Source: Spirochaetota bacterium (lineage in GTDB: Bacteria > Spirochaetota > JAGLSM01 > JAKPMW01). From it: a stretch of DNA of 64,000 bases. The first letter of the stretch is position 1. Each line of letters starts with the position of its first letter. Made by a program: the position numbers and the translations under genes. The stretch spans positions 13,690 through 77,689 of the forward strand of contig JAITCI010000018.1 of assembly GCA_031283155.1 (NCBI GenBank). The letters run 5' to 3'. Positions 679-32,457 of this stretch are shown one piece after another. The notes beneath the pieces are model-generated. The model ran no database searches. It worked only from the letters and a program-made list of their open reading frames with translations, and was not told where the DNA came from.

Positions 679-2530
679 ACTTCACCTCGCCTTCATCCAC
701 ATCCTTGCCGAGATCAACATGGCTCATGTCAACACCAACAAGTTTGCGCACCGCATCCAGAGATCGCGGTGCCTGGGGATCGTCCCGCCTTCCAATGACA
801 GCATAGATACTCTGCGGCGCGGTTTTGCCCTTGACCTTGATCTTTTTCATGGCCTTGGTGATGTAGATATCGCGCACCCTTTCGTAGGCTTCCTGCGAGA
901 TAAGGATATCGGTACCGAAAGGCTTATTGAGCGATTCAATCCGCGATGCAAGATTCACCGCGTCGCCGATAACCGTATATTCCATTCTTTCATGGGAACC
1001 GATCTGCCCCGCGACAACCGGACCGACATTGATCCCGCAGCCGATTCGGATAATGGGCTTCCCGGGGCCGCCGCGATTGCTGTTGAATTCCAAAAGAGCG
1101 GTGCGCATCATCAGGGCGCCGTTTATGGCGTTTTCGATATCATTCCCGTAGGATACCGGAGTACCCCAGACCGCCATGATCGCGTCGCCGATAAATTTAT
1201 CCACAACCCCGTTTGTTTGATTTACACAGGCGACCATGCGCGTCATATAGTCGTTTAAGAATTCCACAACCTCTTCCGGAGAAAGCGATTCGGAGATAGC
1301 CGTAAACGAGCGGATATCGGAAAAGAAGATCGCCACGTCGCGAAGTTCTCCGCCAAGCTTCAGCTCGCCCTTCATTGCCCGTTCGGCGATTTCCTTGTTG
1401 ACGAATTTGCCAAATGCCTCTTTCATCCGCTCGCGCTCTGCCAGCCCCTGCGCCATTTCCACAAAGGAATCGGTCAGATTGCCGATCTCATCCCGCGTTG
1501 TGGCCTGGATGTCAAGAGCGTAATCGCCTTCCTTAACCTGCATGGCCGCGCCTACCAGACGTTTGACCGGACGGGTAATGGTTTTTGCGAAGAGGAAAAC
1601 GATCAGGATGGCAAGGTTGAGTACAAGCACCATAATTATGAAGTTACGGCGCTGAATGGAATAGACCGCCGCAAAGGCTTCATCTTCCTCAACGTATACA
1701 ACCGCGCCGACGCCGGCAAAATCGATTTTCTGGAAGGACCCGAGATAATAGCGCCCGTCTTCCTCATAGCGGATATGCTGGTTGGGGTTGCCGGATTTTT
1801 GCATGGCCTGCACTATGCGTTTATTGGAATAATCCCCGCCTTCCCGCACCTGGGATTGATCGAAATGGGCGAGGAGCCTGCCTTCGGCATTGACGATATA
1901 CGCCCGCATGATCCCTTCCGACCTGACGATATTCGCAAAGCGCTCCATTTGCACAAGAATGACGAGGATACTGGAAGCTTCGGAGGAACCGATCATCCGG
2001 TAGGGAACGGCAATCGCGAGAACATTCAAATCGAACTCGCTGAGTTCTGCCGTGGGATTCATTACCGTGTATTTTCCGGCGAAGCTCCCGTCAAAAACCG
2101 CAAGCAGGGGCTGAATCCTGTCCAGAATGAACCGGGGTTCCGCCGCAAGTCCGGGTACCAGACCGCTGTTGATAAGACTGTTTTGAATGTAGGGTTTTCC
2201 CGCATCGTTTTTCGCAGCGACAGCCGCAAAAACGATATCCTTGTCGTCGTTGAAAATTTCCTGCATTCTCTCCGCGTCCCCCCGGGATCCCTGCAGGATG
2301 GATCCAATGAGTCCTACCTTATCCACAATGGCCTTGAAATCAATGTCGACCTGCCGCCCCATGAGTTCGGCAAACTGCAGGGTATTCTCGCGTACCCGCA
2401 TCTCGTTATCGCTTCTGAAAAAATAGGAAGCAACGAAAATCATGGCACCAAGCGTCATCGCCAGAATAATGGACGTGATGGTAATGAGCTTAAAACCGAT
2501 GCTGAACCGGATTCTTTTCTTTTTATTCAT
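662..2530 (-). CDS. Class III adenylate cyclase with TM, extracytoplasmic sensor and HAMP domains
   Basis: FFSDIRSFT, DKFIGDAIM, EYTVIGDAVNLASRIE catalytic motifs (Lys/Thr ATP specificity); two TM segments; HAMP-like ITRPVKRL...RDEIGNL. Confidence 0.93.
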   Translation of the reverse strand: MNKKKRIRFSIGFKLITITSIILAMTLGAMIFVASYFFRSDNEMRVRENTLQFAELMGRQVDIDFKAIVDKVGLIGSILQGSRGDAERMQEIFNDDKDIVFAAVAAKNDAGKPYIQNSLINSGLVPGLAAEPRFILDRIQPLLAVFDGSFAGKYTVMNPTAELSEFDLNVLAIAVPYRMIGSSEASSILVILVQMERFANIVRSEGIMRAYIVNAEGRLLAHFDQSQVREGGDYSNKRIVQAMQKSGNPNQHIRYEEDGRYYLGSFQKIDFAGVGAVVYVEEDEAFAAVYSIQRRNFIIMVLVLNLAILIVFLFAKTITRPVKRLVGAAMQVKEGDYALDIQATTRDEIGNLTDSFVEMAQGLAERERMKEAFGKFVNKEIAERAMKGELKLGGELRDVAIFFSDIRSFTAISESLSPEEVVEFLNDYMTRMVACVNQTNGVVDKFIGDAIMAVWGTPVSYGNDIENAINGALMMRTALLEFNSNRGGPGKPIIRIGCGINVGPVVAGQIGSHERMEYTVIGDAVNLASRIESLNKPFGTDILISQEAYERVRDIYITKAMKKIKVKGKTAPQSIYAVIGRRDDPQAPRSLDAVRKLVGVDMSHVDLGKDVDEGEVKYEIIE

Positions 2531-2718
2531 GGTGCTGCGAACTTCCTTAATTGGTCGTCTGAAATCCCGATATCAGTCCTCGTTCACCCCTCGCCGACAC
2601 GCCGCTGCCGGGTGTGCGTGTCCATACCGCCATTTTAATATATACCAAGTCAGTTATAGAGTAAAATAATGAATCAGGGGCTTGAGATCAGCCGGGGAAC
2701 CGCCCGGAGCAGTCCTGT

Positions 2719-3693
2719 CTACGGCAGAGCGGGCAAAGCGGCAGGGCGATCGCGGTGCTGGAGCGTACTGTAGAGCATGGGATCAATCGCCTGCCCGCGA
2801 TGCTGCAGCTCAAAATGCAGATGCGGCCCGGTGGAATAGCCCGAACTGCCTACCCTGCCCAGCGCCTGCCCGGCGCGCAGGCGGTCTCCTGCATCAACAT
2901 CCCGCCGCGCGAGATGCCCATACAGGGTGCGGTATCCATAGGCATGGCGAATCACGACAAGATTCCCGTATCCGCCCGACCAGCCGGAAAATTCCACCAC
3001 CCCCTCCTTCGCCGCATATACGGGTGTGCCGGCAGCCGCCGCGAGATCCACGCCGCCGTGAAAGGCGCGATGCCCGGTGAAGGGATCATTCCGCGAGCCA
3101 AAGGCGGAGGAGAGCAACACCTCCTGCAGCGGGGACGCAAAGGCGGTTCCATAAAACATCCCCTGCTCAAGGGGATCCATGGACGCCCCCGGAACAAACA
3201 GCCTCTCCCCGCGCGCAAGACGATCGCGCACGAAGCCATTAAAGCGCATGATATCTCCCGCCGGAACGTCATATTTTTCGGCAAGCTCCGCAAGCGTACA
3301 GGAACCGGAACTCGCGTAACTGACGCCGTCAAAATTTGGGATCAGGATGCGATCCTGCGCTGCGGGCGCGTATACGAAGACCACGCCGCTTGCCGAAGCA
3401 ATCGCGTCCACGGAGATACCAAGCCGCGCGGCGACCGAGGGAAGCGAATCGCCCGGCTTCAGATAATATTCGGCGTACTCCAGCGCCGGAAACGCATATT
3501 CCCGCACATACCTGCCGCGGTAGCGTTTAGAAAGCGCGATCTCTTTTTTGAAACGCGCAAATACAGCGTCGCTCTCATGGAGTACATAGATGCGTTCCGG
3601 GATCGCGGCCTTTCCGCCGATCTGCGCGATGAGCGGTGCCGGAAAAATGAGAATAGCGAGAAGCAAAATTACACGATATACCGGCCTGGTCAT
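2719..3693 (-). CDS. LysM + M23 family metallopeptidase
   Basis: Signal peptide, LysM-like YYLKPGDSLPSVAARLG, M23 motifs HGGVD and STGPHLHFE. Confidence 0.9.
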   Translation of the reverse strand: MTRPVYRVILLLAILIFPAPLIAQIGGKAAIPERIYVLHESDAVFARFKKEIALSKRYRGRYVREYAFPALEYAEYYLKPGDSLPSVAARLGISVDAIASASGVVFVYAPAAQDRILIPNFDGVSYASSGSCTLAELAEKYDVPAGDIMRFNGFVRDRLARGERLFVPGASMDPLEQGMFYGTAFASPLQEVLLSSAFGSRNDPFTGHRAFHGGVDLAAAAGTPVYAAKEGVVEFSGWSGGYGNLVVIRHAYGYRTLYGHLARRDVDAGDRLRAGQALGRVGSSGYSTGPHLHFELQHRGQAIDPMLYSTLQHRDRPAALPALP

Positions 3694-3784
3694 ATCTAAT
3701 GCCTTCGGACGCTTTTCCGCTAAACTTTATTCTTATATAGTGTCGAAAATAGAGGGAGAGGAATGGGAAAAGAAGGGATTTTGG

Positions 3785-4585
3785 ATGCAGGAAAAGCTCT
3801 TTGCTGACTTTATCGCTGCCCTGGGAAGGAAAGGGAGCGATCGGGTCAATTACATCCTTGATTTATGCGCCCTCTTCTGGAAAGCCAGCCGCAGCCTGTT
3901 TGGTCAGAACCGAAGCGCGCGGAAGCTGATCCGAATCAACGCGATGAAGCAGATCCTCTTTACGGGCGTCGATGGCCTTTTTGTCATTTCGATTGTATCC
4001 GCCCTGCTCTCCATGGTCATCATCATCCAGGCGAATACGCTTATTCCCGGACTTGGCGGCGATATAACGGCTTCGCTCCTTGTGATTATCATCATCCGCG
4101 AGCTTGGCCCGGTATTGACCGCCTTTATCATCATTGGCCGCTCGGGTACCGCTGTCGCGACCGAACTTGGGAATATGCGCATCTCGCGCGAATTTGACGC
4201 GCTCTATTCGATGGGCATCGATCCTGTTCATTTTATAGTCGCGCCGCGCCTCGTGGGTATGATCATCTCGCTCCTGCTGCTCGGCATATACTTCAATATC
4301 ATAGGGATCATGGGCGGCTATATCGCCGCAAAACTACAGCTCGATCTTGCCTTTGATACCTTTATTCTGAGTATGCTTGAGGTTTTGAGTGTGTGGGATA
4401 TTTATATCAACCTGGTTAAAAACTTTTTCTTTGGTATCGTTATCTCCATTGTTTGCTGCTATCATGGATTCAGGGTTCGCTCGTCTGTCACCGAGGTTCC
4501 CCAGCAAACCACAAAGGCCGTAGTTAATTCGATATTCCTTTGTTTTTTCTTTGACGCAATCTCGGCTGTGTTTTTTTATATGTAA
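3785..4585 (+). CDS. mlaE: MlaE-family ABC permease
   Basis: RELGPVLTAFIIIGRSGTAVATELGNMR...DALYSMGIDP; start moved to ATG 3785. Confidence 0.9.
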   Translation: MQEKLFADFIAALGRKGSDRVNYILDLCALFWKASRSLFGQNRSARKLIRINAMKQILFTGVDGLFVISIVSALLSMVIIIQANTLIPGLGGDITASLLVIIIIRELGPVLTAFIIIGRSGTAVATELGNMRISREFDALYSMGIDPVHFIVAPRLVGMIISLLLLGIYFNIIGIMGGYIAAKLQLDLAFDTFILSMLEVLSVWDIYINLVKNFFFGIVISIVCCYHGFRVRSSVTEVPQQTTKAVVNSIFLCFFFDAISAVFFYM

Positions 4586-4602
4586 ACGAAAATACGGAGG
4601 AT

Positions 4603-5397
4603 GTGCATTTGGGCACAGCGATCTCATGCCGCCATGCCGATCTCTCCTATGGCAAACAGGAGGTATTACAGGATATCACGCTGGATATCCATGAGGGAAA
4701 ATTTGTTTTCATTCTTGGGGATAACGGCAAATCAAGTCTCCTGAAACTCCTGGGCGGTCTTGAGGAACCCAGACAGGGAACCCTGCTGCACGGCGAAAAC
4801 AACGTATTCAGGGGAGGAGACGCAAAAAGGATTGAATTACTCAGAAACACGGGACATCTCTTTCAGGAGGCGGCGCTGATCGCAAACCTTTCGATGTACG
4901 AAAATATCGCCTTGCCGCTCAGGTACCATACGCGCCTCCCGGAAAAAGAAATAAGGGAACGGGTTGCCGGCATGATGGAAGAACTTAAATTGCATATCCA
5001 AACCGATCTGCGGCCTGCGGTATTTCCCATAGGTGTGCGCAAGATAGCGGCTCTTGCGCGCGCGTTGATTATGGAACCTGCAATGATTTTTCTGGATGAT
5101 CCCTCAAGCGGAATTGAGCGCAGCGCGCGCGAAGCCATGCTTCGTATGCTTCTGAAGCTGAAGCAACAGGGAAAAACCACCGCCATGTTCGTCTCCGAAG
5201 ACGGGCGCTATATATCGCAGCTTGCGGATCGCGTACTTATATTGCATGATGGAAAAATCATTGCGGACGGCACAGATACAGAAGTTTTTGCTTCAAAGGA
5301 TCCCTATGTGCGCGAGATCGCTCTGCGCATCGGACAGGAAAATATGGCAAACACCATGCAAACAAAACCGGATACACGCGCCGGAGGGAACACATGA
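4603..5397 (+). CDS. mlaF: MlaF-like ABC ATP-binding protein with degenerate motifs
   Basis: ABC fold context (LFQEAALIANLSMYENIALPL, ALARALIMEP), but Walker A GDNGKS, signature FPIG, Walker B LDDP and H-loop SED all deviate from consensus. Confidence 0.8.
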   Translation: MHLGTAISCRHADLSYGKQEVLQDITLDIHEGKFVFILGDNGKSSLLKLLGGLEEPRQGTLLHGENNVFRGGDAKRIELLRNTGHLFQEAALIANLSMYENIALPLRYHTRLPEKEIRERVAGMMEELKLHIQTDLRPAVFPIGVRKIAALARALIMEPAMIFLDDPSSGIERSAREAMLRMLLKLKQQGKTTAMFVSEDGRYISQLADRVLILHDGKIIADGTDTEVFASKDPYVREIALRIGQENMANTMQTKPDTRAGGNT

Positions 5398-6239
5398 CCT
5401 TCAAATTCCGATACTACGACAAGATTGTGGGTTTTTTCGTTCTCATCGGACTCCTCTGTCTGCTTCTTGTCGTATTGCTCATGGCCAGCAATCAACGATG
5501 GTTTGAGGGCAGCCTGCCGCTTTTTACGGTATTCAACCGCGGAGAAGACCTCGCAAGCGGTATGGACGTAAAACTCAACGGCATAACCGTGGGGAAGGCG
5601 ACCAGGATTGCCCTCAATGAGGAAAACAGGATCCGGGTGGATTTTAAGATATACAATCAATTCCGGGACAGGGTAAAAAGCGACGCATCCATCCTGCTCG
5701 AAACACCCTCCCCTCTTGGAGGAGGATATCTGTCTATCGCCCTTAAAAAAACAGATGGCACCCATGCGGAGGCCACCGAAGGGCAATGGCTGCACTCGCA
5801 GGATGAAGACGACGTAAAAAAACTTCTTAATGCCGGCAATATCGAGAGAATCGGCGGTATCAATTCCATTATCCAGGATATCGCGTCTCTGGTCTCGACA
5901 CTCATGGCACCGGACAGCTCATTGAACGCCACACTCGATAATCTGAAGATTGTAACCGACGATATCGCCGATAAAGGAATCTCCAAAGCCCTGAGCCTCG
6001 AGGATACCATTAGCGGTATAAACAAGCTCCTCTCCGATCTTAATGTATTAAGCGCCACTCTCCGTTCGTCTTCGCCCCAGATCAAAAACATCATCGATAC
6101 CGCGCAAAGAAGTCTGAGCGATGCATCCGGTATCCTCACCGGACTACAGGACTTTTTGGGAACAGCGCCCGGCAGAAATACCGATCCCGAAACAGGCATC
6201 GGCATGATTCAGCATAACCAACGGGGGTATCAATACTGA
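5394..6239 (+). CDS. mlaD: MlaD/MCE-family substrate-binding protein
   Basis: N-terminal TM, GEDLASGMDVKLNGITVGK MCE motif, helical C-terminus; follows mlaEF. Confidence 0.85.
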   Translation: MTFKFRYYDKIVGFFVLIGLLCLLLVVLLMASNQRWFEGSLPLFTVFNRGEDLASGMDVKLNGITVGKATRIALNEENRIRVDFKIYNQFRDRVKSDASILLETPSPLGGGYLSIALKKTDGTHAEATEGQWLHSQDEDDVKKLLNAGNIERIGGINSIIQDIASLVSTLMAPDSSLNATLDNLKIVTDDIADKGISKALSLEDTISGINKLLSDLNVLSATLRSSSPQIKNIIDTAQRSLSDASGILTGLQDFLGTAPGRNTDPETGIGMIQHNQRGYQY

Positions 6240-6291
6240 TATGCGTACATACAGCCCCCGATATTCCGGCCGCAATAAACGGGGAGAATAT

Positions 6292-7230
6292 ATGCACATT
6301 ATAATGATTCTTTTCTTTGCGCTGACTATTCTCTCATGCGGCGGCTCTTCCGCAGGCGTAAAGCCCGATTACGTACCCGCAGGCCCCGTACAGGAACGCA
6401 TCCTCACCGAGGCGCGGGTATATGAAGCAAACGCTTTCGACCAGTACGAGAACCGTGACTATCAACCCGCGATTGGGAATTACCAGACTGCGCTGAGGCT
6501 TCTCACCCTCATTGACAACCAGCAAGAGATAGCCCTGGTGCGCCACAATATGGCAAACGTGCTTATCGCGCTGCATAACCATACGGGTGCCGAAAACGAA
6601 ATTGAACTCTCTCTCAGGGCAAACCGCAGCTTCGAATACCCGCTGCGTATTGCCGCAAATCTGGCCAGCCTGGGTACAATTTACGAGGCAAGATCTGACC
6701 TGGATAAAGCTCTTTCGTATTACAGTGAGGCGCTGGATCTTCTTCTGAAAAACAGAGGCTCAGCGAATATGACAGCACGGCAGTATAATAACTGCGGGTA
6801 TATATTGCTGAAGCAGAAAAAATACGACGAAGCAAAGAAGCAATTCGATCTTGCGCTGAGCAAGGCTAAATCTGCTTATGCGCATCTTGAGGCGGGAGCA
6901 GCCTACAGTGGTATCGGAAAATACCAGTTTGAGATGAAACAAATGGATTTGGCTCTGAGATCATTTGGAAACGCGCTCATTGCGTATAAAGCCGCCGAAT
7001 CATCCGAAAATATTGCCATCAGCCTGAAGGATCTCGCGCTCACATACGAAGCCCAGGGCGATACGGGAAAAGCCATTGATCATACCGAACGCGCCTATAA
7101 TATCAACAGGATGCTGCAGCTTGAAAACAGATGGCGGCAGGATCTGGATGTTCTGATTCGCCTGCATACAAACGCCGGAAATACCGCCAGAGCAGAGGAA
7201 TACCGACGCCTCCTCCGCTCAGGGCGATAG
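6292..7230 (+). CDS. TPR-repeat lipoprotein
   Basis: RBS GGGGAG, ATG 6292, lipobox ILSC, repeated TPR-like helices (NLASLGTIY...KALSYYSEAL). Confidence 0.75.
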   Translation: MHIIMILFFALTILSCGGSSAGVKPDYVPAGPVQERILTEARVYEANAFDQYENRDYQPAIGNYQTALRLLTLIDNQQEIALVRHNMANVLIALHNHTGAENEIELSLRANRSFEYPLRIAANLASLGTIYEARSDLDKALSYYSEALDLLLKNRGSANMTARQYNNCGYILLKQKKYDEAKKQFDLALSKAKSAYAHLEAGAAYSGIGKYQFEMKQMDLALRSFGNALIAYKAAESSENIAISLKDLALTYEAQGDTGKAIDHTERAYNINRMLQLENRWRQDLDVLIRLHTNAGNTARAEEYRRLLRSGR

Positions 7231-7304
7231 TGCGGCAAAGCCGCATCCATGGGGAATGCGTCCTGCTTGACCCGGAGGGACAGAATTTCGTAGATTGAAT
7301 AATC

Positions 7305-7868
7305 ATGGATGACTCTTCATTTGAACGTGTCGTTATAGAGAGCGTTTCATTTAATAACCTCGGCTTCGTCGTGCTTTTACGCAGGGAGGACAGCCGGGCT
7401 GTTCTCCCGATCTTCATCGGGGCAAGCGAAGCGCATTCCATCGCGCATGCCTTCAATAACCAAAGTTTTCCAAGACCGCTTACCCACGATCTCTTCACAA
7501 GCACCCTGCGTCTTTTGGACTGCAGCGTACCCTACGTAGCCGTTACCGATCTTATCGAAAATACATTTTACGCAAAGATATTTATCCTGCGGGAAGACGC
7601 GGAAAAATATCAAATCGACGCGCGTCCCTCCGACGCAATCGCGATAGCCCTGCGCTTTACCGCGCCCATATACGTAAGCAAAGCTGTTATGGAAAATGCG
7701 GCGATTATCCTCTCTCCGGACAATGAAGGGGAAGAGGAGGAAAATACCGAGAACACCGAACCCGCAAGTTCTCTCCGGCGTGAATTGGATATCGCAATCT
7801 CGGAAGAACGCTACGAGGATGCCGCGCGGCTTCGCGATGAACTGAAGAAAATACTCAATAAAAATTAA
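7305..7868 (+). CDS. Bifunctional nuclease family (DUF151) with C-terminal UVR motif
   Basis: LPIFIGASEA, RPLTHDL, DARPSDAIAIALR, AISEERYEDAARLRD. Confidence 0.9.
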   Translation: MDDSSFERVVIESVSFNNLGFVVLLRREDSRAVLPIFIGASEAHSIAHAFNNQSFPRPLTHDLFTSTLRLLDCSVPYVAVTDLIENTFYAKIFILREDAEKYQIDARPSDAIAIALRFTAPIYVSKAVMENAAIILSPDNEGEEEENTENTEPASSLRRELDIAISEERYEDAARLRDELKKILNKN

Positions 7869-7886
7869 AAGGCATAAGGCAGGATC

Positions 7887-9788
7887 ATGAAGATACGCAT
7901 ATCCATCATTCTGTTTTTTGCGCTTCTTTTCCCGATATCCCTGTCTGCGGCTTTCAACACCTCATTTATCCCGTCTCTCTTTCCGGCATTTGCCTCCGCC
8001 GATGAAGAAAAATTGGTGCGCGAATTAGAGAAAAAGAAACTGAGTTCTTTCACATTTCTCGACGCCTCGCTGATTGCCTCCGGAGCAAGTCCGGAGAGCC
8101 TGGATGGGTACAGGCAAAAATACCGCAGTCTCTCGGAAAAAATCCGGCGCGATTTGCCCACGCTTGGGCTTGACGCCATGAGCCGCGCGGCAAAAATATT
8201 TGAATTGATGTTCAAATACGCCATGTCCACATATAAATCCGAGCAAACCACGCTTTTGGAGATACTGAATGAGGGAAGTTTTAACTGCGTTTCCGCTACC
8301 CTTCTCTATAACCTTCTTGCGGAGGAATACGGTTATGAGACGCAGGCTGTGGTTGTTCCCGAACACGTCTATAGCCAGATTCGGATCGGCGGAAACTGGA
8401 TCGATGCGGAAACCACAGCATCCGGAGGCTTTCATCCCCTGCGGAAGCCGGAGAATGCGGTTTCAAACCGCTATTATATTGAAGATAAGGGTAAAAACGG
8501 ACAGAAAACATTTATGCCTGCGCAAAGACTCATTGCGCTTTTATACTATAACCGCGGAACACTCTCCCATCATCAAGGGAACGATCAGACCGCGCTTGGG
8601 CTGCTCTTCCGGGGACTCCTCATCTTTCCGGAGCATATTGAGTCACAGGAAAATTTTCTCTCCTTTTTGATTGATTGGGCACAAAAGGAAAGCAGGGCGG
8701 GGAGAAGTGCCGCAGCTCTCGGTATATGCGACGAAGCGGAGCGCGCTCTCGGAGCGCATAAGGATTTGATTCCTCTGCGCGAATATGTTGTTTTTGAAAG
8801 CGCGGAACAATCCGCCAAAAAGGGTGATTTTGCGGGCGCGGTTTCGGCAATAGAGCAATATCTGAACTCCCTGAAGAATAAAAAGCCTGACCATGTGATG
8901 ATCCTTCGCGGGTATCTGCTTGCCTGGGCGCAGCAAAGCCAACAGCAGCGCAGCTATGAAAAAATGCTTGATCTCATTAAACGAGCATCAAAGGAAGGGC
9001 TTGACGCCCAGGCGGATTCCATGAGCCTTTTCATCATTACGGAAGCGGCAAAGCAGATTGCGAAAGATGAAGGCTTTGAAAAAGGCTGCGCCTTTTACGA
9101 CAAGCAATATCCAAAAAAAAATGAGAGCCTTGCTGTACAGCAAAACCGCCTCTACCTTCACGGACTCTGGATTAATTCCCATGTGGCGTCAAAAAAATAT
9201 GAAGAGGCCTATCTTCTCTGCCGCAATCTGCAGCAAAGTTATCCGGACAACAAGGATATGCAGGGACTTGCTGTATGGATTGTGCAAAAATGGGCGGACG
9301 ACTGGGCAGCGGCCAGCAAAGACATTAATTATATAAACGGTATGTCGGCGCTCTACATGAGGCATCAGGATCCGGCTATCGCGAATGAACTGGTCAACCG
9401 CGCTATTCGGGACATAAACCAGCTTCAGCAAAATAAGTTTTTTGAGCGAGCCTGCGAGAATCTCAGGATACTTATATCCCTGAAGCTCGGCGCAGAAAAC
9501 ACACAATTGATTAACGAAATGTATCGCGTGGTTCTGAATAACTGGGGGATATACCACGCCGAGCGCGCCGAATTTGCCGAGGCCATCGAAATCGGGAAAC
9601 GCGCCCGAAAACTCTTTCCAGGCGATCCTGCTATCAATACCAACCTCGCAAATTTTTACTACAGCGCCGGGGTTGAAAAGCTTAACCGGCAGCAATATGA
9701 CGCTGCCGCGAAAATTGCGAACGAGGGACTTACGGAATTTCCCGGCAACGCCGGCTTGCTGAAATTACGTCAGCTTATTCCTCGTTAG
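7887..9788 (+). CDS. Secreted transglutaminase-like domain + TPR protein
   Basis: Signal peptide; FNCVSA / PEHVY / IDAETT suggest a Cys-His-Asp triad; TPR-like helices follow. Confidence 0.65.
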   Translation: MKIRISIILFFALLFPISLSAAFNTSFIPSLFPAFASADEEKLVRELEKKKLSSFTFLDASLIASGASPESLDGYRQKYRSLSEKIRRDLPTLGLDAMSRAAKIFELMFKYAMSTYKSEQTTLLEILNEGSFNCVSATLLYNLLAEEYGYETQAVVVPEHVYSQIRIGGNWIDAETTASGGFHPLRKPENAVSNRYYIEDKGKNGQKTFMPAQRLIALLYYNRGTLSHHQGNDQTALGLLFRGLLIFPEHIESQENFLSFLIDWAQKESRAGRSAAALGICDEAERALGAHKDLIPLREYVVFESAEQSAKKGDFAGAVSAIEQYLNSLKNKKPDHVMILRGYLLAWAQQSQQQRSYEKMLDLIKRASKEGLDAQADSMSLFIITEAAKQIAKDEGFEKGCAFYDKQYPKKNESLAVQQNRLYLHGLWINSHVASKKYEEAYLLCRNLQQSYPDNKDMQGLAVWIVQKWADDWAAASKDINYINGMSALYMRHQDPAIANELVNRAIRDINQLQQNKFFERACENLRILISLKLGAENTQLINEMYRVVLNNWGIYHAERAEFAEAIEIGKRARKLFPGDPAINTNLANFYYSAGVEKLNRQQYDAAAKIANEGLTEFPGNAGLLKLRQLIPR

Positions 9789-11472
9789 CGTAAGTTTTCC
9801 AGGCAGCGCGAAACCCCGTCTGCAAACCTTTGTATAGATTGAACAGAAGTCCAAGTACCAGCGCCAGCCCTCCAAGATACGCTCCCGCAATCCCGAGAAA
9901 ATCGCCATGCCGCGTATATACGCTCTGTCCATATCCGCGCATGAGTGAAATGTTACCGTCCAGAATACCGACCGTATGATTCGGAAGACGCGCCTGCATC
10001 CGTCCCCAGGCGTCAATGACGCAGGTGACTCCGGTATTGGCGGCGCGCACCATATACCGGCGGTTTTCTATCGCGCGCAGAATGGCCATCGCGGCATGCT
10101 GCTCCTGCGACTGTACGCTCCTTGACCAGTAATCATTTGTCGTATTGATCAGAAATTCAGCGCCGCCCAGAACAAATTGCCGACAGAGACCCCCAAATAT
10201 GTCTTCAAAACAGATAACCACGGAAAACGCCGTGTCTCTTTCCCGGAATACCGTATACCGCGTACCGGGCGTGAAATCACTTGCCACCGTATCCCGCAGA
10301 ATTTTTGCGACAAAAGGAAACTCTTTCTTGTACGGAAACCATTCCCCAAAGGGAACAAGGTTAATTTTGTAATAGCTATCCAGCACATTGGTGCCTGGAG
10401 TAACAAGGAAAGCGGCGTTATAGGATTGCATCTCCAAGCCGGGACTGCCGGTTACATTCGTCACCGCAACACGATCACGATGCGGTGCCGTCAAAAGCAC
10501 CGCCCGTCCGGCGCGGTCCGGCATACCCACAAACCACTCCGCAATCCGCCGGTCGGAATTGTCCTCCGGTGCCATCCTGAGATATTTCCAGTAATACATT
10601 CCGGGCGGATGCGAAAGGGTTTCCGGCCAGATAATCAGATCCCCCCCGCCCTTGCCTGCCTGCAGGGTCAGATCGGTGATTTTCTGCATGGTTTCGGCAT
10701 AGCGATCCCGCGCCCAATCTGTTTCCGGATCCACGAAAGCCTGAATGAGATGTACCTTGTACTCCGCACCTGACGGTTTCTCCGATAAACGCAAAGCCCC
10801 GTAAAGAAGAGAAAAACCAAGAAGCGCGCCGAGACAACAGAGCAATATCCGCTTTCGCCGCCGCGTGTCCTGTCGGAAGAGATACGCGACAACCGCATTG
10901 GCAAAGACCACCAAAAAGGAAACGCCCCATACGCCCGCGATATCAGCGATCTGCAATATGGGCAGAAAAGCTGTTTGCGAATATCCCGCCAGACCCCAGG
11001 AATAGCCAAGAAAACCCGTAGAGCGAAAATACTCAACGCCTGCCCAGAACAGGGAGAAGAGCAGAGGATCGAGCCATGGAAAACGATCACGGCTTATTCG
11101 CTGCCAGACAGAAAGAAAGAGAAAGGGCAGGGAAAAATAGAGCGCAAGGGCAGGAACTGCGGTAAAGAGCGCCATGACGTGAAAGACATGCATCCAGTAC
11201 GCAAGCACAAGCCAGAAAGACATCCCCGCCAGAAACGCAAACAGCCACATCCGCTTCACGGAAATGCCGCGCTGCATCACCAGCAGCGGAACAAAGGCTA
11301 TCCACGCAAGCGGGAAGATATCCGTGAGCGGGAAAGCCAGCCCAAGAGCCGCGCCGGAGATAATCGCGATAACCGCGCCCGCACAAAAAGCGAAGAAACG
11401 TCTGGGAAGAGGTTGTTCCTTATCATACCAGGGACGCCCAAAGGCAGAGAGGAAAATTCTCCGGAAAACCAT
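9775..11472 (-). CDS. lnt: Apolipoprotein N-acyltransferase
   Basis: Multiple TM helices; nitrilase triad IIWPE, YYKINLVPFGE, VICFED; RAIENRR..VRAANTG. Start uncertain; ATG 11472 has a GAGGT RBS. Confidence 0.92.
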   Translation of the reverse strand: MVFRRIFLSAFGRPWYDKEQPLPRRFFAFCAGAVIAIISGAALGLAFPLTDIFPLAWIAFVPLLVMQRGISVKRMWLFAFLAGMSFWLVLAYWMHVFHVMALFTAVPALALYFSLPFLFLSVWQRISRDRFPWLDPLLFSLFWAGVEYFRSTGFLGYSWGLAGYSQTAFLPILQIADIAGVWGVSFLVVFANAVVAYLFRQDTRRRKRILLCCLGALLGFSLLYGALRLSEKPSGAEYKVHLIQAFVDPETDWARDRYAETMQKITDLTLQAGKGGGDLIIWPETLSHPPGMYYWKYLRMAPEDNSDRRIAEWFVGMPDRAGRAVLLTAPHRDRVAVTNVTGSPGLEMQSYNAAFLVTPGTNVLDSYYKINLVPFGEWFPYKKEFPFVAKILRDTVASDFTPGTRYTVFRERDTAFSVVICFEDIFGGLCRQFVLGGAEFLINTTNDYWSRSVQSQEQHAAMAILRAIENRRYMVRAANTGVTCVIDAWGRMQARLPNHTVGILDGNISLMRGYGQSVYTRHGDFLGIAGAYLGGLALVLGLLFNLYKGLQTGFRAAWKTYANEE

Positions 11473-27244: not shown

Positions 27245-27326
27245 AGCCGTGAAAAACCAGGGCGCGTCCCTGAAATGTTTTTTCGCCAATTGCGGGCAGC
27301 ATACCGCTTAGCCAATACAGGAGAGT

Positions 27327-29816
27327 TTATTTCGCCTTTTTTGCGTCGGCTGCGCTGATAGACGTGTCGTAAAGACCGATGTCCTCTCCTTCGTGCCGAT
27401 TGATTCCAGTATACTCCAGCGAGGAATCCTCATAGCGCTTGAACTTATACACTGCGTCGTTCATAAGGGCGCTATTGAATACGCCCAGCGATACGAGCAA
27501 CTCGAAATCTTTGATTTCCAAACCGGTCGTCTTTTTGAAAAGCCCCGGCTCTAATTGCGTAATAACGTCCTTCAGCGAGCGCTCGCGGTAGTCCGTCAGA
27601 TACATAAAGACGGGAATACGCGTTGCGAATTTAATAAGTTTCTCCTGAATTTGCTTGCGGACGCTCTTATATTCTTTTTCTTCCTCGGTAAGCTGTTTCT
27701 TCTCTTTTTCGGAAAGTTCCTTCTCGTTCGCTTTTGTTTTGAGTTTATTTACGCTCTCGGACTTGTTGATAATCGTTTCTATATCCTGATTGAGATTGCG
27801 GAAACCTTCGATATTCATAAGGGCTTCCATCGCTTTCGGATTGTCCATCAAGCGGCGAAGAGTATTGTTATCTACGTTGACGAGCAAGGCGCTTTCCCAG
27901 CGGCGGGCGAGTAAGGTCGCCGTCGTACCGGCCATCGCCATATCGAGAACTCCGGCTGCGTCGATTTGTTTCATAGAACTTCCGTCGTAGGCGAGGACGG
28001 GCAGGAAATTGATAAACTCCGCAACCTTCTTCTCGGGATTGCTTTCGTTCAGGTCGAGACGGCAACTATATTCCGCAATCTGCTTCAACGCGCGGTCGGG
28101 CGCGAAATCAAACACGTAGCAGTCCTCTTTGAGTATCGTATCCGTTCCGTCGGGGTTCTTCGTCGTCCACGGCGTTTGAACGCGGAAGGCGGCCTGGAAG
28201 TAGGTCTCGGGGCTTGACGAGTTGCGGAGCATAAAGATACCCGACCACGGCTTTACCGATACCCCGGTCGTCAGTTTGCCGCAGGAGAGGGTTATCGTCT
28301 TTGTTTTGAGCGGGTCGTCCATTCCCTTGAATACGGGGAAAAGCGCTTGCACCCCAATACCGGCTTCGCTGCCGGCGGCGACGATAACCTGATAATCCTT
28401 GTAAAAGATATTTTGCCGTTTATCCAAAAGATTTTTCATAGCATAGCAACTGGCGACGGACGGCAAGAACCAGAACGTATGGGTGAGCAGCCCGAGCAAT
28501 CGAGCGTCCGAGAATGGCATAGGCGGTTTTTGAGTGCCGAGTTTCAAACTGTCGATAGTCGTTTCCATAAACGCGCCGCGAATGAGGTCGAGCCATTTTT
28601 GAACTTCGCTCTCGTGCATGAATTTCGCCTTGTCCGCAGCGTCGGCAGCCGAGAAAAACTCGTTGAGGTCGAACTCGTTAAACTCGCCTTGCAGGGCAAC
28701 ATCGCGGATTGCATCCGGCAGTTGATAGGTAAGCATAACCATTCGCGGAAGCGAACTGTAGGGGTTAGTATTCTTCCTGTCCTTCCATGCATTTTTTTCA
28801 CGCTGCTCGTCGGAATACGTCCAGTTATAGATTTGTTCTTCGATAAACTCGCCGCTTGCGATGGCGCGAAACGGCGTACCGGACAGATACAAATACGCGC
28901 CGGTAGTTATGGGCATATTGTTTTCGTCGTAGTAATCCAGCCCCGCGCCTTCTTCCCGCTTGTCTTCCGCTTCAAATAAATCCTTAGCGTTTTCGCGCCA
29001 CGCGCCGTAATGGTATTCATCCAGAATCACGCAGTCCCAGTTCGCAGAATGGACCCATTCGTTTTTCGCCTTGATACCGCCGACTTTGTTCTTTCCGAGT
29101 AAATCCTGAAACGAGCCGAAGGCAACCATCGGACCGGCTTTGCGCGGCCTGGAAAACGACGCTTCCCCGGTATGCTCTTTGCAAACTATGAACTGCCAAC
29201 CGTCAAAGTCGGTATGGGATTTCAAATCATCCTCCCATGCGTTTTGAGCGGCGGGCTTGAAGGTAAGGACAAGTATCTTCGTCCAGCCCATCGCCTTTGC
29301 GAGTTGGTAAGCGGTGAAAGTTTTGCCAAAACGCATTTTGGCGTTCCATAGAAAATGCGGGGTCTTATGCGGGTTTTCTTTTTTGTAACTTTGGAAATAC
29401 GCCATTGTCTTTTTGACGGCGGCTTCCTGCTCGGGCCGCATTCCAAAGGTGTTCGTGCGCGGCATATCGAACTCTTTGCGCTCGCGCAGGGCAACGCAGG
29501 CGGCCTTTACGTCGCGGACGGAGCATTTGAACCATTCGCCCTCGGGGTTCAGGAACTTCCGATTGCGAAGATAGCGGTGAACATCGTGGTCGGTAAAAGA
29601 CGAGCCATCCTCGCGCATTGCGGTTTCTATCAATACGATTTTATAAGGGGCTTTGCCTGGACGCTTGGTCGGGTATTGCTGGGCGACGCGCTCTTCGGCG
29701 GACTGGGCGGATGTATAGCCGACTTTTAATAGTCCGGCATACTGCGGGTTTGTATCCTCATAGGCATAGATTGTCGGGCAAGCCTCGGGGCGCTTTGGGA
29801 AAAAGTCCTTATTCAT
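27327..29816 (-). CDS. T5orf172/GIY-YIG nuclease fused to SF2 (ResIII-like) helicase
   Basis: IYAY...LLKVGYT...EGEWF; AKMRFGKT, LDEYH, LSGTP, KLTTGV, YFQAAFR. Confidence 0.85.
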   Translation of the reverse strand: MNKDFFPKRPEACPTIYAYEDTNPQYAGLLKVGYTSAQSAEERVAQQYPTKRPGKAPYKIVLIETAMREDGSSFTDHDVHRYLRNRKFLNPEGEWFKCSVRDVKAACVALRERKEFDMPRTNTFGMRPEQEAAVKKTMAYFQSYKKENPHKTPHFLWNAKMRFGKTFTAYQLAKAMGWTKILVLTFKPAAQNAWEDDLKSHTDFDGWQFIVCKEHTGEASFSRPRKAGPMVAFGSFQDLLGKNKVGGIKAKNEWVHSANWDCVILDEYHYGAWRENAKDLFEAEDKREEGAGLDYYDENNMPITTGAYLYLSGTPFRAIASGEFIEEQIYNWTYSDEQREKNAWKDRKNTNPYSSLPRMVMLTYQLPDAIRDVALQGEFNEFDLNEFFSAADAADKAKFMHESEVQKWLDLIRGAFMETTIDSLKLGTQKPPMPFSDARLLGLLTHTFWFLPSVASCYAMKNLLDKRQNIFYKDYQVIVAAGSEAGIGVQALFPVFKGMDDPLKTKTITLSCGKLTTGVSVKPWSGIFMLRNSSSPETYFQAAFRVQTPWTTKNPDGTDTILKEDCYVFDFAPDRALKQIAEYSCRLDLNESNPEKKVAEFINFLPVLAYDGSSMKQIDAAGVLDMAMAGTTATLLARRWESALLVNVDNNTLRRLMDNPKAMEALMNIEGFRNLNQDIETIINKSESVNKLKTKANEKELSEKEKKQLTEEEKEYKSVRKQIQEKLIKFATRIPVFMYLTDYRERSLKDVITQLEPGLFKKTTGLEIKDFELLVSLGVFNSALMNDAVYKFKRYEDSSLEYTGINRHEGEDIGLYDTSISAADAKKAK

Positions 29817-31344
29817 TATCCGCCCCTTTTGCGTTCGCGTCCATCGGGCGAATCATGGAATCTATAAAGGCGATTTCGTCTTTGGTGAGGTCGTATTTTT
29901 TATAGAGTTTTTCGTCCGTCCATTCTTCGGAGAAGTCTTGCATGGGGACGAAATTATAAACTCGTTTCGGCGCGTCCTGTGTATTCTTTATTTGCAAAAC
30001 CAAAAAGCGGAAGAATTCAGTAGTAATATATTTTAAGGCGTTCTCCGCCATTGTCTTTGTTTTGAATGGCCCTATAAGCAAAAATGTTTCCGTGCAACAC
30101 GAATTCGGCTCTCCGACGAAAGGTTTGCCAAGAACTAAATAAGGGAACGATCCGCGTTCGCCATAGGCTCTTGAAATGTATAATTTCCAAGAATCTATCC
30201 ATTGCTGATTTTCAACAACTTCTTCTTTGGTAATAAAACTTTCTTCTTTGCAAATGTTTCTATTGGCATATAATTTGACAGAATTTTTGTCTTTTGTTTT
30301 CTTCCCTTGGACGTAAGTTCTTAAACCAAACGGCTTTTGCGAGCTAACGATTTCGGCAAAACTTTTTTCTTTCAATTTATGCGCTTTTTTTACAATACTG
30401 ATAGCCTCGTTAAATCTTATAAATGTGTCGCTATTATCTTCCAATAGCGGTCGGGTCATAACAGATTCCTGCCCAGCGCGAACCGATTTGATTTCGCACT
30501 CGCCCTTGTTGTCCCTGTCCCAAAGGAAATAACAAACGCCGCCAGAAATATCCACGCCAGGGAAACATTCTGTGGAATCAAAATAATCAACTATTTTTCG
30601 CACTCTGTTATCGTGCAACATTTCGGATCGAAACTTATCAAGGCCGCGTCCGCCGGCATACCAACGCGCCGGAACGATCATTGTAAGATAGCGCGGATTT
30701 AGCTTTTGCGCTTGTTGTATAAATTTATGATACAAAGGAATTGCGCTCGCCTGTGCGCCGCCGTCGCCGAGCTGATATGGCGGATTTCCTATAATTACGT
30801 CAAACTTCATATTGAATAACTCCTCTGGCTTCTTTGTGTGGATAAACTGGTATGCGTGGCTTTCAAGTCCGTCGTCGCGTTTATATTCGGACTCGGACGC
30901 GCCACAATACTCGCATCGGCCGCCAACCCAGTTATGTTTTGTCGGCGTATACCGGATATTGCCTTGCTCGTCCTTAAACTCGGTGCATAGCGAATACTGC
31001 GTATGATCGGCCTTCTTCGCGCAATAGACGCTCCGCCGCGATAGCAAACCCGTCATTTCCGTTATCGCAAGCCCGAAAACCTGATTTGTAAGAATATGGT
31101 TTATCCGCTTTTGCAGATCGGGGATTTCCTTTTTCAAACCCTCGTTCAGGCGCTTTACTATCTCGCGCAGGAATACGCCGGACTTACAGCAAGGGTCGAG
31201 AAAGGTCGCGTTTTTATCTTTCCAAATTTTCCCGGGCAACAGGTCGAGCAAGTTGTTCGCCATCTGCGGCGACGTGAATACCTCGTCGTTAGACAGGTTT
31301 GCCAAACAGGTGAGAACGTCGGGGTTATAGTTAGTCCTGAACAT
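29809..31344 (-). CDS. Eco57I-type N6-adenine DNA methyltransferase with TRD
   Basis: FLDPCCKSGVF motif I, IIGNPPY motif IV, AT-richer C-terminal TRD. Confidence 0.88.
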   Translation of the reverse strand: MFRTNYNPDVLTCLANLSNDEVFTSPQMANNLLDLLPGKIWKDKNATFLDPCCKSGVFLREIVKRLNEGLKKEIPDLQKRINHILTNQVFGLAITEMTGLLSRRSVYCAKKADHTQYSLCTEFKDEQGNIRYTPTKHNWVGGRCEYCGASESEYKRDDGLESHAYQFIHTKKPEELFNMKFDVIIGNPPYQLGDGGAQASAIPLYHKFIQQAQKLNPRYLTMIVPARWYAGGRGLDKFRSEMLHDNRVRKIVDYFDSTECFPGVDISGGVCYFLWDRDNKGECEIKSVRAGQESVMTRPLLEDNSDTFIRFNEAISIVKKAHKLKEKSFAEIVSSQKPFGLRTYVQGKKTKDKNSVKLYANRNICKEESFITKEEVVENQQWIDSWKLYISRAYGERGSFPYLVLGKPFVGEPNSCCTETFLLIGPFKTKTMAENALKYITTEFFRFLVLQIKNTQDAPKRVYNFVPMQDFSEEWTDEKLYKKYDLTKDEIAFIDSMIRPMDANAKGADNE

Positions 31345-32017
31345 CTGCCAGCCTTAAATAATGGATTACATCGTGTTCCTTTATCGGCTTTGGGATAAAG
31401 ACCTCTTCGCCCAAATCCGAAAAAAGATTTTTTTCTTCCATTTCAGGAAACAGACCAGCGCCGGCGAAAGGGTTTGCATTGACGAGATGGGTAAACTTGA
31501 AATCGCGCCGTTTCATGAAACTGCCATTGACGGGCGACCATTCGGAGAAGATGATAAAGTCATCGGGAGCGTCAATGCGGCGGAAGGTCAAGGCGTCGCC
31601 TAAAACGATATTTTTTTTCAGGATAAACCTGGCGCTGGCCGCGCAATCTGACGGCGCGTCCGTCTTATAGGTTTTCCGGTAAAAGTCGTTAAATACTCCG
31701 AACAGGCGCTCGCGGCAGTTTTCAACATTGTCCGGCAAAATATCGATTCCATAGATACTCGACACAACGAGGACGGCATAGCGGTCATATTCTGCCGGGG
31801 ACTTCGCGTAGCGGCCGGCAACAACGCCCAGTTTGCGCTTTAAGACCTCTGCCAGGAAGTTGCCCTTGCCGCAAGCGGGTTCAAGGAAACGGGAATCTAT
31901 CCGTTCGGTTTCGGACTTCACCAAATCGAGCATGGCGTTGACCTCGCGCCCGGCGGTATACACTTCGCCGTGATCGCGGGTGCGCTGTCTTGATACAATT
32001 TGTTGCTCGGTTTCCAT
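31331..32017 (-). CDS. Truncated methyltransferase-fold protein (motif I only)
   Basis: GEVYT, FLEPACGKGNFL, IYGIDIL, NIVLGDAL, but no NPPY/DPPY before the stop. Confidence 0.8.
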   Translation of the reverse strand: METEQQIVSRQRTRDHGEVYTAGREVNAMLDLVKSETERIDSRFLEPACGKGNFLAEVLKRKLGVVAGRYAKSPAEYDRYAVLVVSSIYGIDILPDNVENCRERLFGVFNDFYRKTYKTDAPSDCAASARFILKKNIVLGDALTFRRIDAPDDFIIFSEWSPVNGSFMKRRDFKFTHLVNANPFAGAGLFPEMEEKNLFSDLGEEVFIPKPIKEHDVIHYLRLADVQD

Positions 32018-32265
32018 TTCTTTTTATTCCGCGCCAGGGGTGAGTAGTTTCGTATATTCGCCACAGGCGTGTTTGGGAAATGTCTCCGCCAGAGTGGGTG
32101 CTTGCTGATTGGCGGCATCCGCAGGTTTCTGGGCATAATCTTCAATAATATATTGATTGCTAATTATATGCGCATGGACGTTCAGGGGATTTATGGAGGG
32201 AAATGCGTATACAACGCCGCTCAAAAATCGCGGCAAACGAAATTTATAATTAGAAGAGGGAATTA

Positions 32266-32277
32266 CCCCCCCCCCCC
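32266..32277. repeat. C12 homopolymer tract upstream of the RM-like locus
   Basis: 12 consecutive C, about 250 bp upstream of the 32017 start. Confidence 0.85.
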
Positions 32278-32457
32278 ATCTGGCAAATTTGGTGTATGCT
32301 TTTGCGCACACGGCTTCATGCCCGAAAGGCGAGGACGAATGGAAATTCGAAGCGGGCATCGTTTTGCGTGTCATATCTTTACAGTATATCTACATTGCCC
32401 AATTTTGCAAACAAAAATTTTCGCGGCGGAAATTCAGCCGCGAAAAGGCACGAAAAG

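Follow-up and report, generated by a model that had tools for sequence, protein, structure and literature searches.

Here, we identified a three-gene restriction-modification (R-M) cassette of the DrdVI family in a 64,000-nt stretch of contig JAITCI010000018.1 (GCA_031283155.1; hereafter the window), which belongs to the genome of an uncultured spirochaete. The explanation that fits best overall, and which we consider quite likely, is that the cassette is an intact member of this family carried on a mobile islet, in which the products of the first two genes (g1 and g2) would write N6-methyladenine (m6A), the product of the third gene (g3) would be the restriction subunit, and g1 would serve as an obligate subunit for S-adenosylmethionine (SAM). 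To judge from its sequence, the locus is a further copy of a catalogued R-M family and, as a locus, ordinary; taken alone it adds little beyond one more such copy in an uncultured spirochaete. Among the new results, the most informative is the way in which SAM-binding motifs are partitioned between the small and the large methylase lobes across the different architectures of the family.

Assignment to the DrdVI family

An open reading frame (ORF) scan of the window placed g1, g2 and g3 on the minus strand as three overlapping, co-oriented genes. They encode an M1.DrdVI-like half-methyltransferase of 228 aa (g1, 31331..32017; assigned by ORF scan, homology and an AlphaFold2 (AF2) model), an M2.DrdVI-like gamma-class N6-adenine DNA methyltransferase of 511 aa with a target recognition domain (TRD) (g2, 29809..31344; Pfam, BLASTP and Foldseek) and a DrdVI-like restriction subunit of 829 aa (g3, 27327..29816; Pfam, alignment and BLASTP). 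The g1/g2 overlap is 14 nt (ATGTTCAGGACTAA) and the g2/g3 overlap is 8 nt (ATGAATAA), with overlapping stop and start codons at both junctions.

The closest known systems are DrdVI and M1-M2.MaeIV of Methanococcus aeolicus. The pDrdVI plasmid of Deinococcus wulumuqiensis NEB 479 (NZ_CP031164) carries genes for proteins of 212, 539 and 851 aa in the same order as g1-g2-g3, and in BLASTP comparisons each product of the window matched its counterpart over nearly the full length: g1 was 42% identical to M1.DrdVI (E 7e-48), g2 was 49% identical to M2.DrdVI (E 0) and g3 was 56% identical to the R protein of DrdVI (E 0). The features that define the family are also present, that is, an NPPY gamma-class N6-adenine methylase with a C-terminal TRD (g2) and a translocase with a GIY-YIG-type nuclease in the same chain (g3).

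In REBASE, the family is listed under Type IIG as 'split methylase/RM genes', with the small protein named M1; the IIG filing is a label of convenience. Three papers, two by Fomenkov et al. and one by Anton et al., have treated the family. Cloning of M1 together with M2 yielded m6A at GCAGCC for DrdVI and at GCACY for MaeIV (PMC6430315, PMC10113651), and DrdVI has been described as 'a fused translocase and REase' with a GIY-YIG domain (PMC4996451). Methylation has therefore been characterised in published relatives, and the restriction side has not. Each of the two characterised motifs contains adenine on a single strand, so modification would be one-stranded, which is also the case for Type ISP, Type III and Type IIL systems. 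The variable region of g2 (residues 281-440) is ~40% identical to that of M2.DrdVI, a value given for residues 281-400, and because of this divergent TRD the motif recognised by g2 probably differs from GCAGCC.

An earlier note, made from the letters of this stretch, had correctly described three overlapping co-oriented genes, but had regarded the locus as atypical. The gene-for-gene match to a REBASE-catalogued family shows that it is not an unclassified one. That note had itself named a match to a characterised R-M type as the result that would overturn it, so the DrdVI match largely does overturn it, although restriction and the role of M1 are unpublished for the family. Its proposal of a split ISP-like system with a pseudo-methyltransferase is reasonable as a functional description; the cassette resembles a Type ISP enzyme split up (see the co-linear fused relatives below). 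In REBASE, however, the small protein stands as M1 of a split methylase and not as a regulator.

Domain organization of the three proteins

The g1 protein has the methylase motifs X (HGEVYT), I (FLEPACGKGNF), II (YGIDI) and III (LGDAL), and no (N/D)PP(Y/F), that is, no motif IV, is found in its sequence. It comprises the SAM-binding lobe only, followed by an FSEW...KRRDF hairpin and a conserved LFSDxGE tail. In an alignment of 38 homologues, the hairpin is conserved after motif III, in place of motif IV, and 57 columns are invariant, including the hairpin and the SDxG motif of the tail. Residues E46, G50, G52, D92 and D141 are invariant or almost so, and the first four of these are SAM-contacting. 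Similarity between g1 and the N-terminal part of g2 was detected both by BLASTP (29% identity over 77 aa, E 2e-7) and by profile-profile comparison with hhalign (g1 18-98 vs g2 24-102, 96.5% probability, E 7.8e-10).

Searches with g1 in domain and structure databases returned little. Pfam gave a sub-threshold MmeI_Mtase match at motif I and nothing else, the PADLOC profile MTase_II PDLC03313 covers residues 5-109 only, and a sequence search of the PDB with the g1 profile produced marginal matches only, at motifs X and I. The AF2 model of g1 is a confident half-Rossmann fold (mean predicted local distance difference test (pLDDT) 81.6) with a tail of low confidence, and its Foldseek neighbours were all weak, namely the N-terminal parts of CamA, LlaBIII/LlaGI (E 0.4-1.4) and BrxX/PglX. 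On the other hand, homologues of g1 are abundant: at least 8000 were found among 5.8 billion proteins, with lengths of 215-240 aa and ~60% identity over the full length in many phyla, and an exhaustive search of representatives at E up to 1e-3 gave 3285 clusters of relatives. On this record, g1 is a conserved separate gene and not a frameshift fragment.

The g2 protein matches Pfam Eco57I (1.4e-35). Its motif I (residues 48-58, 31171..31203, minus strand) lies before its catalytic motif IV, FDVIIGNPPYQ (residues 181-191, 30772..30804, minus strand; located by sequence and alignment), which is the order of the gamma class. In the sequence alignment, motif I is non-canonical (FLDPCCKSGVF), the first Gly of GxG being replaced by a Lys that is invariant in 41 homologues. 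At the place expected for motif III/beta3, conserved cysteines (C108, C120, C144 and C147) mark a four-Cys Zn-ribbon-like insert (residues 108-147, 30904..31023, minus strand); the AF2 pLDDT of residues 96-135 is below 50. Column conservation is ~0.8 over the N-terminal 240 residues vs 0.32-0.57 in a variable region (residues ~281-440, 30025..30504, minus strand), which is likely the TRD that sets the methylated motif. Foldseek matched the AF2 model of g2 to CamA, BrxX/PglX, BseCI, TaqI and MmeI (E down to 1.9e-16), and a sequence search of the PDB with the g2 profile gave no match at E up to 1.

The N-terminal domain of g3 belongs to the T5orf172/MUG113 group of the GIY-YIG clan (residues 17-107, 29496..29768, minus strand; Pfam PF10544, 1.4e-9) and carries the motifs IYAY, LKVGYT and GEWF. 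It is followed by a superfamily 2 (SF2) motor (residues ~125-560, 28137..29444, minus strand; Pfam and alignment) with a ResIII match at residues 125-283 and the motifs AKMRFGKT (Walker A), DEYH, LSGTPF and QAAFRVQ. In an alignment that takes in both split and fused relatives, the Walker A, DExH and SGTP motifs and the conserved T5orf172 residues of g3 are all intact. A charged helical stretch, read from the sequence (residues 685-727, 27636..27764, minus strand), corresponds by co-linearity to the stretch that links motor and methylase in the fused relatives, and ~100 further residues, a C-terminal domain, come after it. At least 8000 homologues of g3 were found, and their identity of ~75% across phyla implies strong purifying selection on the motor-nuclease.

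These results agree with the earlier note in that the first gene resembles the N-terminal half of the second and lacks motif IV, and in that the third gene fuses T5orf172 to an SF2 motor; the 'coiled-coil tail' that it had added to the third gene is replaced by the charged stretch and the residues behind it. Its treatment of the genes as one unit with a conserved partner consisting of the SAM lobe only is borne out by the g1 family and by the constant gene order described under distribution.

Fused, permuted and hybrid relatives

Several forms of the cassette differ in how the domains are distributed among polypeptides. In fused relatives from the same phylum, a single protein of 1318-1393 aa is co-linear with g3 followed by g2, the order being T5orf172, SF2 motor, charged linker, methylase and TRD. 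These proteins are distant (28-36% identity) and match PADLOC REase_MTase_IIG PDLC03626. A separate small gene (311-337 aa) is nevertheless kept immediately upstream in all 11 loci of this form; its product matches PADLOC 'MTase_II' PDLC03390 at 1e-124 and shows weak homology to g1.

A permuted form was found in one locus (L115, G319:C27:45000-54000), with three genes on the minus strand: a small SAM lobe (5877-6812), a free catalytic/TRD half of 344 aa starting at motif IV (MKFDFCIGNPPY; 4846-5880) and a nuclease-motor of 1118 aa (1488-4844), a T5orf172-helicase that ends in a degenerate methylase N-lobe. The PADLOC 'MTase_II' profile PDLC03375, which has 348 positions and begins at motif IV, fits the catalytic half. 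Here, the methylase fold can only arise from polypeptides that are encoded separately.

The fourth architecture is represented by Lactococcus lactis plasmid NZ_CP065987 (L118), in which a g1-like lobe of 230 aa (5992-6684) lies directly upstream of a single-chain DUF4145-ResIII-Eco57I enzyme of 1452 aa (6686-11044). The same type of pair occurs on 22 Enterococcus and 9 Lactococcus plasmids. The 1452-aa enzyme had no sequence match to LlaGI/LlaBIII in the PDB at 1e-3; this type is a further ISP-like lineage that keeps a separate small lobe. Papers on the lactococcal plasmidome mention active 'I SP' enzymes without detail.

A separate small lobe is thus present in the split, fused, permuted and Lactococcus/Enterococcus plasmid forms, and in all four it keeps the acid and Gly of motif I, the acid of motif II (G[IF][DE]) and the Asp of motif III. 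In g2 and all variants of the large subunit, the N-lobe has the sequence D/E-x3-K-x-G, lacks motif III and carries no acid where motif II canonically has one. In addition, five single-chain methylases of 483-580 aa (P0305, P0337, P0362, P0368 and P0389; L090 and L091) combine a g1-type N-lobe with a g2-type NPPY/TRD half. Their junctions all differ, they nest at five separate places in the g1 tree (~145 columns, no support values shown), and the sequence that was examined contains no nuclease-motor gene; it looks as though the M1/M2 pair had repeatedly collapsed into an orphan methylase. A similar hybrid of g1 lobe and NPPY half is found in B. trehalosi (PMC4996451). Across the four architectures the SAM motifs are kept in the small lobe and lost in the large N-lobe, and together with the hybrids this pattern supports g1 as a probable obligate SAM-binding subunit of the methylase.

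Some other relatives were also recorded. In a 1.5-kb Logan contig (P0011), a complete g1 homologue reads through in frame to the start of a g2 homologue via a 9-residue linker, which could be a natural fusion or an assembly/sequencing error. The defence islet of another spirochaete (L099, G005:C21:1-14000) contains an 871-aa MmeI-family enzyme, a weak RES-domain ORF and a PIN-domain gene together with a small lobe and a fused DrdVI-like enzyme of 1320 aa, and the same genome has a split DrdVI-type cassette on another contig. TDE0911/TdeIII of Treponema denticola had been considered as a possible characterised fused relative and was dropped, since descriptions of it point to an ordinary Type II enzyme.

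Distribution and probable mobility of the cassette

A scan of GTDB species representatives detected the cassette in at least 592 species from more than 20 phyla. The order g1-g2-g3 was constant in all 70 loci in which the three genes were detected, and g1 and g2 overlapped in ~60 of them; the contexts of g1 homologues always follow this order, with an Eco57I methylase (~500-530 aa) behind the small gene and a T5orf172-ResIII protein (~830 aa) behind the methylase. With at least 8000 homologues and a motor ~75% identical across phyla, the DrdVI family ranks with the most broadly distributed ATP-dependent R-M-like cassettes. The split form has no dedicated model in PADLOC or NCBIfam, and the PADLOC profiles cover the fused and permuted variants only. 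Within Spirochaetota the distribution is patchy: a relative of g3 was present in 26 of 401 genomes, and g1 and g2 accompanied it in all six of the split loci that were reached from g3 and retrievable. Neither of the two sampled genomes of the same genus had a detectable g3 relative.

In related cassettes, the g2 and g3 genes overlap or lie 0.8-2.4 kb apart with cargo in between. About one third of these cassettes have cargo in this M2/R gap, and the g1/g2 junction is almost never interrupted. Bro-N (9 loci) and YhcG/DUF1016 nuclease (8 ORFs in 7 loci) were found as cargo, along with AbiEi/AbiEii, Fic, RhuM, Schlafen/AlbA_2-HATPase_c_4, ORF6N, PIN and an IS200 transposase (loci with cargo between the g2 and g3 homologues or between those of g1 and g2: L003, L016, L018, L020, L025, L034, L044, L050, L081, L085 and L087). 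The same genes are typical hitch-hikers inside Type I R-M operons.

Complete copies of the cassette are also located on plasmids and in a phage genome, and in the window the GC content of the cassette is 0.43-0.51 vs 0.57-0.61 in the flanks. The cassette is horizontally acquired, and it is probably a mobile defence islet outside the core genome of this spirochaete. For an empty-site comparison, the contig of a same-genus genome (G002) stops ~330 nt after prmC.

The phage copy (L121, positions 4995-10226 of phage NatCom_35866, PV036449) is a complete DrdVI-type cassette in a 64.8-kb human-gut Caudoviricetes genome; its genes encode 260, 506 and 974 aa, the motor is 64% identical to g3, and an excisionase-like gene adjoins. 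A gene for a small serine recombinase (resolvase/invertase) adjoins the cassette in unrelated hosts (L001, L002, L006-L009, L023, L073 and L120), just upstream of g1 in most cases and just downstream of R on pDrdVI, which hints at one mobility route. Decayed copies were observed as well. One (L059, 6160-7341) is a deletion hybrid that joins g2 residues 2-215 to g3 residues 655-826, in another (L006, 7514-9113) g2 is broken into 380 and 159 aa, and in L070 and L072 both g2 and g3 are fragmentary.

Flanking signals in the window

A terminator-like hairpin with a T-run lies directly after the g3 stop codon (27257..27273, minus strand; consensus scan only), and a weak promoter-like site, TTGCAA-16 nt-TATACT with 9/12 matches, is found ~370 nt upstream of g1 (32383..32411, minus strand); the number of promoter-like sites in the region is not above that in shuffled sequence. 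Between this site and the operon, a run of 12 G (32266-32277, minus strand) is located ~250 nt upstream of the g1 start, inside an ORF of 116 aa (32024-32374) that has no Pfam match. Poly-G tracts are common across the genome (259 overlapping 10-mer matches, many at contig ends), and the run may reflect a general proneness to slippage rather than a phase switch specific to the R-M cassette. A conserved upstream regulator or fourth gene was also considered and is not supported, as the ORFs upstream of g1 in 65 full loci do not cluster, save four serine recombinases.

Proposed mechanism and alternative explanations

Homology and the published cloning of relatives suggest that g1 (M1) and g2 (M2) together would write m6A on a short asymmetric motif, with the variable TRD of g2 setting which motif is methylated. 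The protein encoded by g1, made in step with g2 through the overlapping stop and start codons, would be an obligate, non-catalytic subunit that holds the only canonical SAM pocket of the system, as the conservation of its motifs suggests. From its domain content and the co-linear single-chain relatives, g3 would act as the restriction subunit, combining an ATP-driven SF2 translocase on double-stranded DNA (dsDNA) with a T5orf172/GIY-YIG-type nuclease. By analogy, where sites are unmethylated g3 may dock on the methylase/recognition module, translocate and then cut, so that the whole system would approximate a Type ISP enzyme that has been divided among subunits and has another nuclease in place of Mrr.

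Several points weigh against this explanation. The published clonings always paired M1 with M2, so the need for M1 is presumed, and we found no published restriction, ATPase or cleavage data for any DrdVI-family member, so the cutting mechanism rests on analogy. The functionally analogous DnmA-YeeB-YeeC cluster of B. subtilis did not restrict phages or plasmids under the conditions tested (PMC9973331). Finally, g2 may bind SAM alone with unusual residues, because AF2 places its own beta1 and beta2 confidently (pLDDT ~96) and Foldseek matches its model to complete methylases.

The role of g1 within the methylase can also be pictured differently. In a composite or 'time-share' methylase, which we consider possible if on the whole unlikely, the NPPY/TRD half of g2 would complete its Rossmann fold in trans with the canonical SAM lobe of g1, which would be the sole lobe in the system competent for SAM. 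The degenerate N-lobe of g2 (D/E-x3-K-x-G) would then be a docking lobe that connects the recognition half to the motor, and which is fused to the motor C-terminus in relatives; a single catalytic half would alternate between two N-lobes and in this way decide between modification and restriction. The permuted locus fits such an arrangement, having a free catalytic/TRD half, a degenerate N-lobe on the end of the motor and a small lobe encoded upstream, and so does the PADLOC profile that begins at motif IV. The five single-chain hybrids with their different junctions and tree positions, the same hybrid in B. trehalosi, the in-frame g1-g2 fusion and the retention of SAM motifs in the small but not the large lobe of four architectures are in line with it, too. 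However, g2 of the window has the degenerate lobe and the catalytic half on one covalent chain, the confidently modelled beta1 and beta2 leave no obvious room for g1, and the fold matches complete methylases. Moreover, the g1 tree was built on ~145 columns and shown without support values, and the hybrids, which stand in orphan contexts, are possibly decay products.

Alternatively, g1 might be a non-catalytic SAM sensor or licensing subunit outside the methyl-transfer site, which couples the availability of the cofactor or the state of the g2-DNA complex to the activation of g3. Classical Type I and Type III restriction, with its requirement for AdoMet, offers a comparison for such a role. We believe this to be unlikely, even though the SAM-contacting residues, the FSEW...KRRDF surface hairpin and the LFSDxGE tail motif are invariant, the low AF2 confidence of the tail is as expected of a docking peptide, and the small gene stays separate in 11/11 loci with a motor-methylase fusion. 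The small protein was named M1 of a split methylase in REBASE after cloning with M2, and the independent fusions of g1 lobe and catalytic half fit a direct catalytic role better than remote sensing.

It is quite improbable that the cassette of the window is restriction-dead and an epigenetic methylase relic, as was concluded for DnmA-YeeB-YeeC of B. subtilis. The lack of phage and plasmid restriction by that cluster of methyltransferase, helicase and T5orf172 protein (PMC9973331) and the existence of decayed DrdVI cassettes (L006, L059, L070 and L072) are consistent with a relic, but g1, g2 and g3 are all full length with intact catalytic motifs, and the purifying selection on g3 speaks against it. 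That g1 is a dispensable piece of a longer methylase, left over from a frameshift or truncation, a possibility the earlier note had allowed for and one suggested by its resemblance to the N-terminal half of a methylase only and by the partial coverage with PDLC03313, is practically excluded by its thousands of full-length homologues with dozens of invariant residues, including those of the unique C-terminal half, by its conserved synteny and translational coupling, and by the fact that nothing is missing from g2, which has its own complete N-terminus.

The family merits attention beyond this locus. As an obligate pseudo-enzyme or split Rossmann-fold partner in DNA methylation, a conserved, catalytically dead half-methylase would be a rarity among prokaryotes, and its role, once settled, would explain the choice between modifying and cutting. 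This biochemical question on M1 concerns the whole DrdVI family.

Comparison with known systems

Among known R-M systems, the cassette does not fit the classical Type IIG enzymes (Eco57I/MmeI), in which R and M share one chain without an ATP motor and cleavage takes place at a fixed distance without NTP hydrolysis. Here, nuclease and methylase reside on different proteins and an SF2 ATPase is present.

With Type III systems (EcoP15I Mod/Res) it shares a separate methylase/recognition subunit, an ATP-dependent helicase-nuclease, the Pfam label ResIII of the motor and, to judge from characterised relatives, one-strand modification of an asymmetric site. However, the nuclease of Res is a C-terminal PD-(D/E)xK domain, whereas that of g3 is N-terminal and GIY-YIG-like; Mod is a beta-class homodimer with motif IV before motif I, whereas g2 is of the gamma class with the reverse order; and the second 'Mod-like' subunit here is the truncated paralogue g1.

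The DnmA (YeeA)-YeeB-YeeC cluster of Bacillus subtilis and Vibrio crassostreae resembles the cassette in having an m6A methylase for an asymmetric site, an SF2 helicase and T5orf172, and in its location in defence islands (PMC9973331). It differs in its long MmeI-type methylase, in encoding helicase and T5orf172 as separate proteins, which are one protein in g3, and in having no half-methylase; the sole MmeI signal in our locus is the sub-threshold MmeI_Mtase match (E 0.055).

The Type ISP enzymes LlaGI and LlaBIII have a nuclease, an SF2 dsDNA translocase, a linker, a gamma-class N6-adenine methylase and a TRD, which is the content of g2 and g3 and the same one-chain domain order as in the fused relatives, and the targets of characterised DrdVI relatives are likewise asymmetric and methylated on one strand. 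On the other hand, LlaGI/LlaBIII are single polypeptides and g1-g2-g3 are three, their nuclease is of the Mrr/PD-(D/E)xK type instead of T5orf172/GIY-YIG-like, and LlaGI has no extra half-methylase subunit such as g1. Moreover, g2 shows no detectable sequence similarity to LlaGI/LlaBIII in the PDB search at E up to 1, the link being the weak Foldseek match of g1 only.

DrdVI itself is the nearest of all, with the same three genes in the same order, similar protein sizes and the same domain content; the cassette of the window differs from it in the host phylum and in the divergent TRD of g2.

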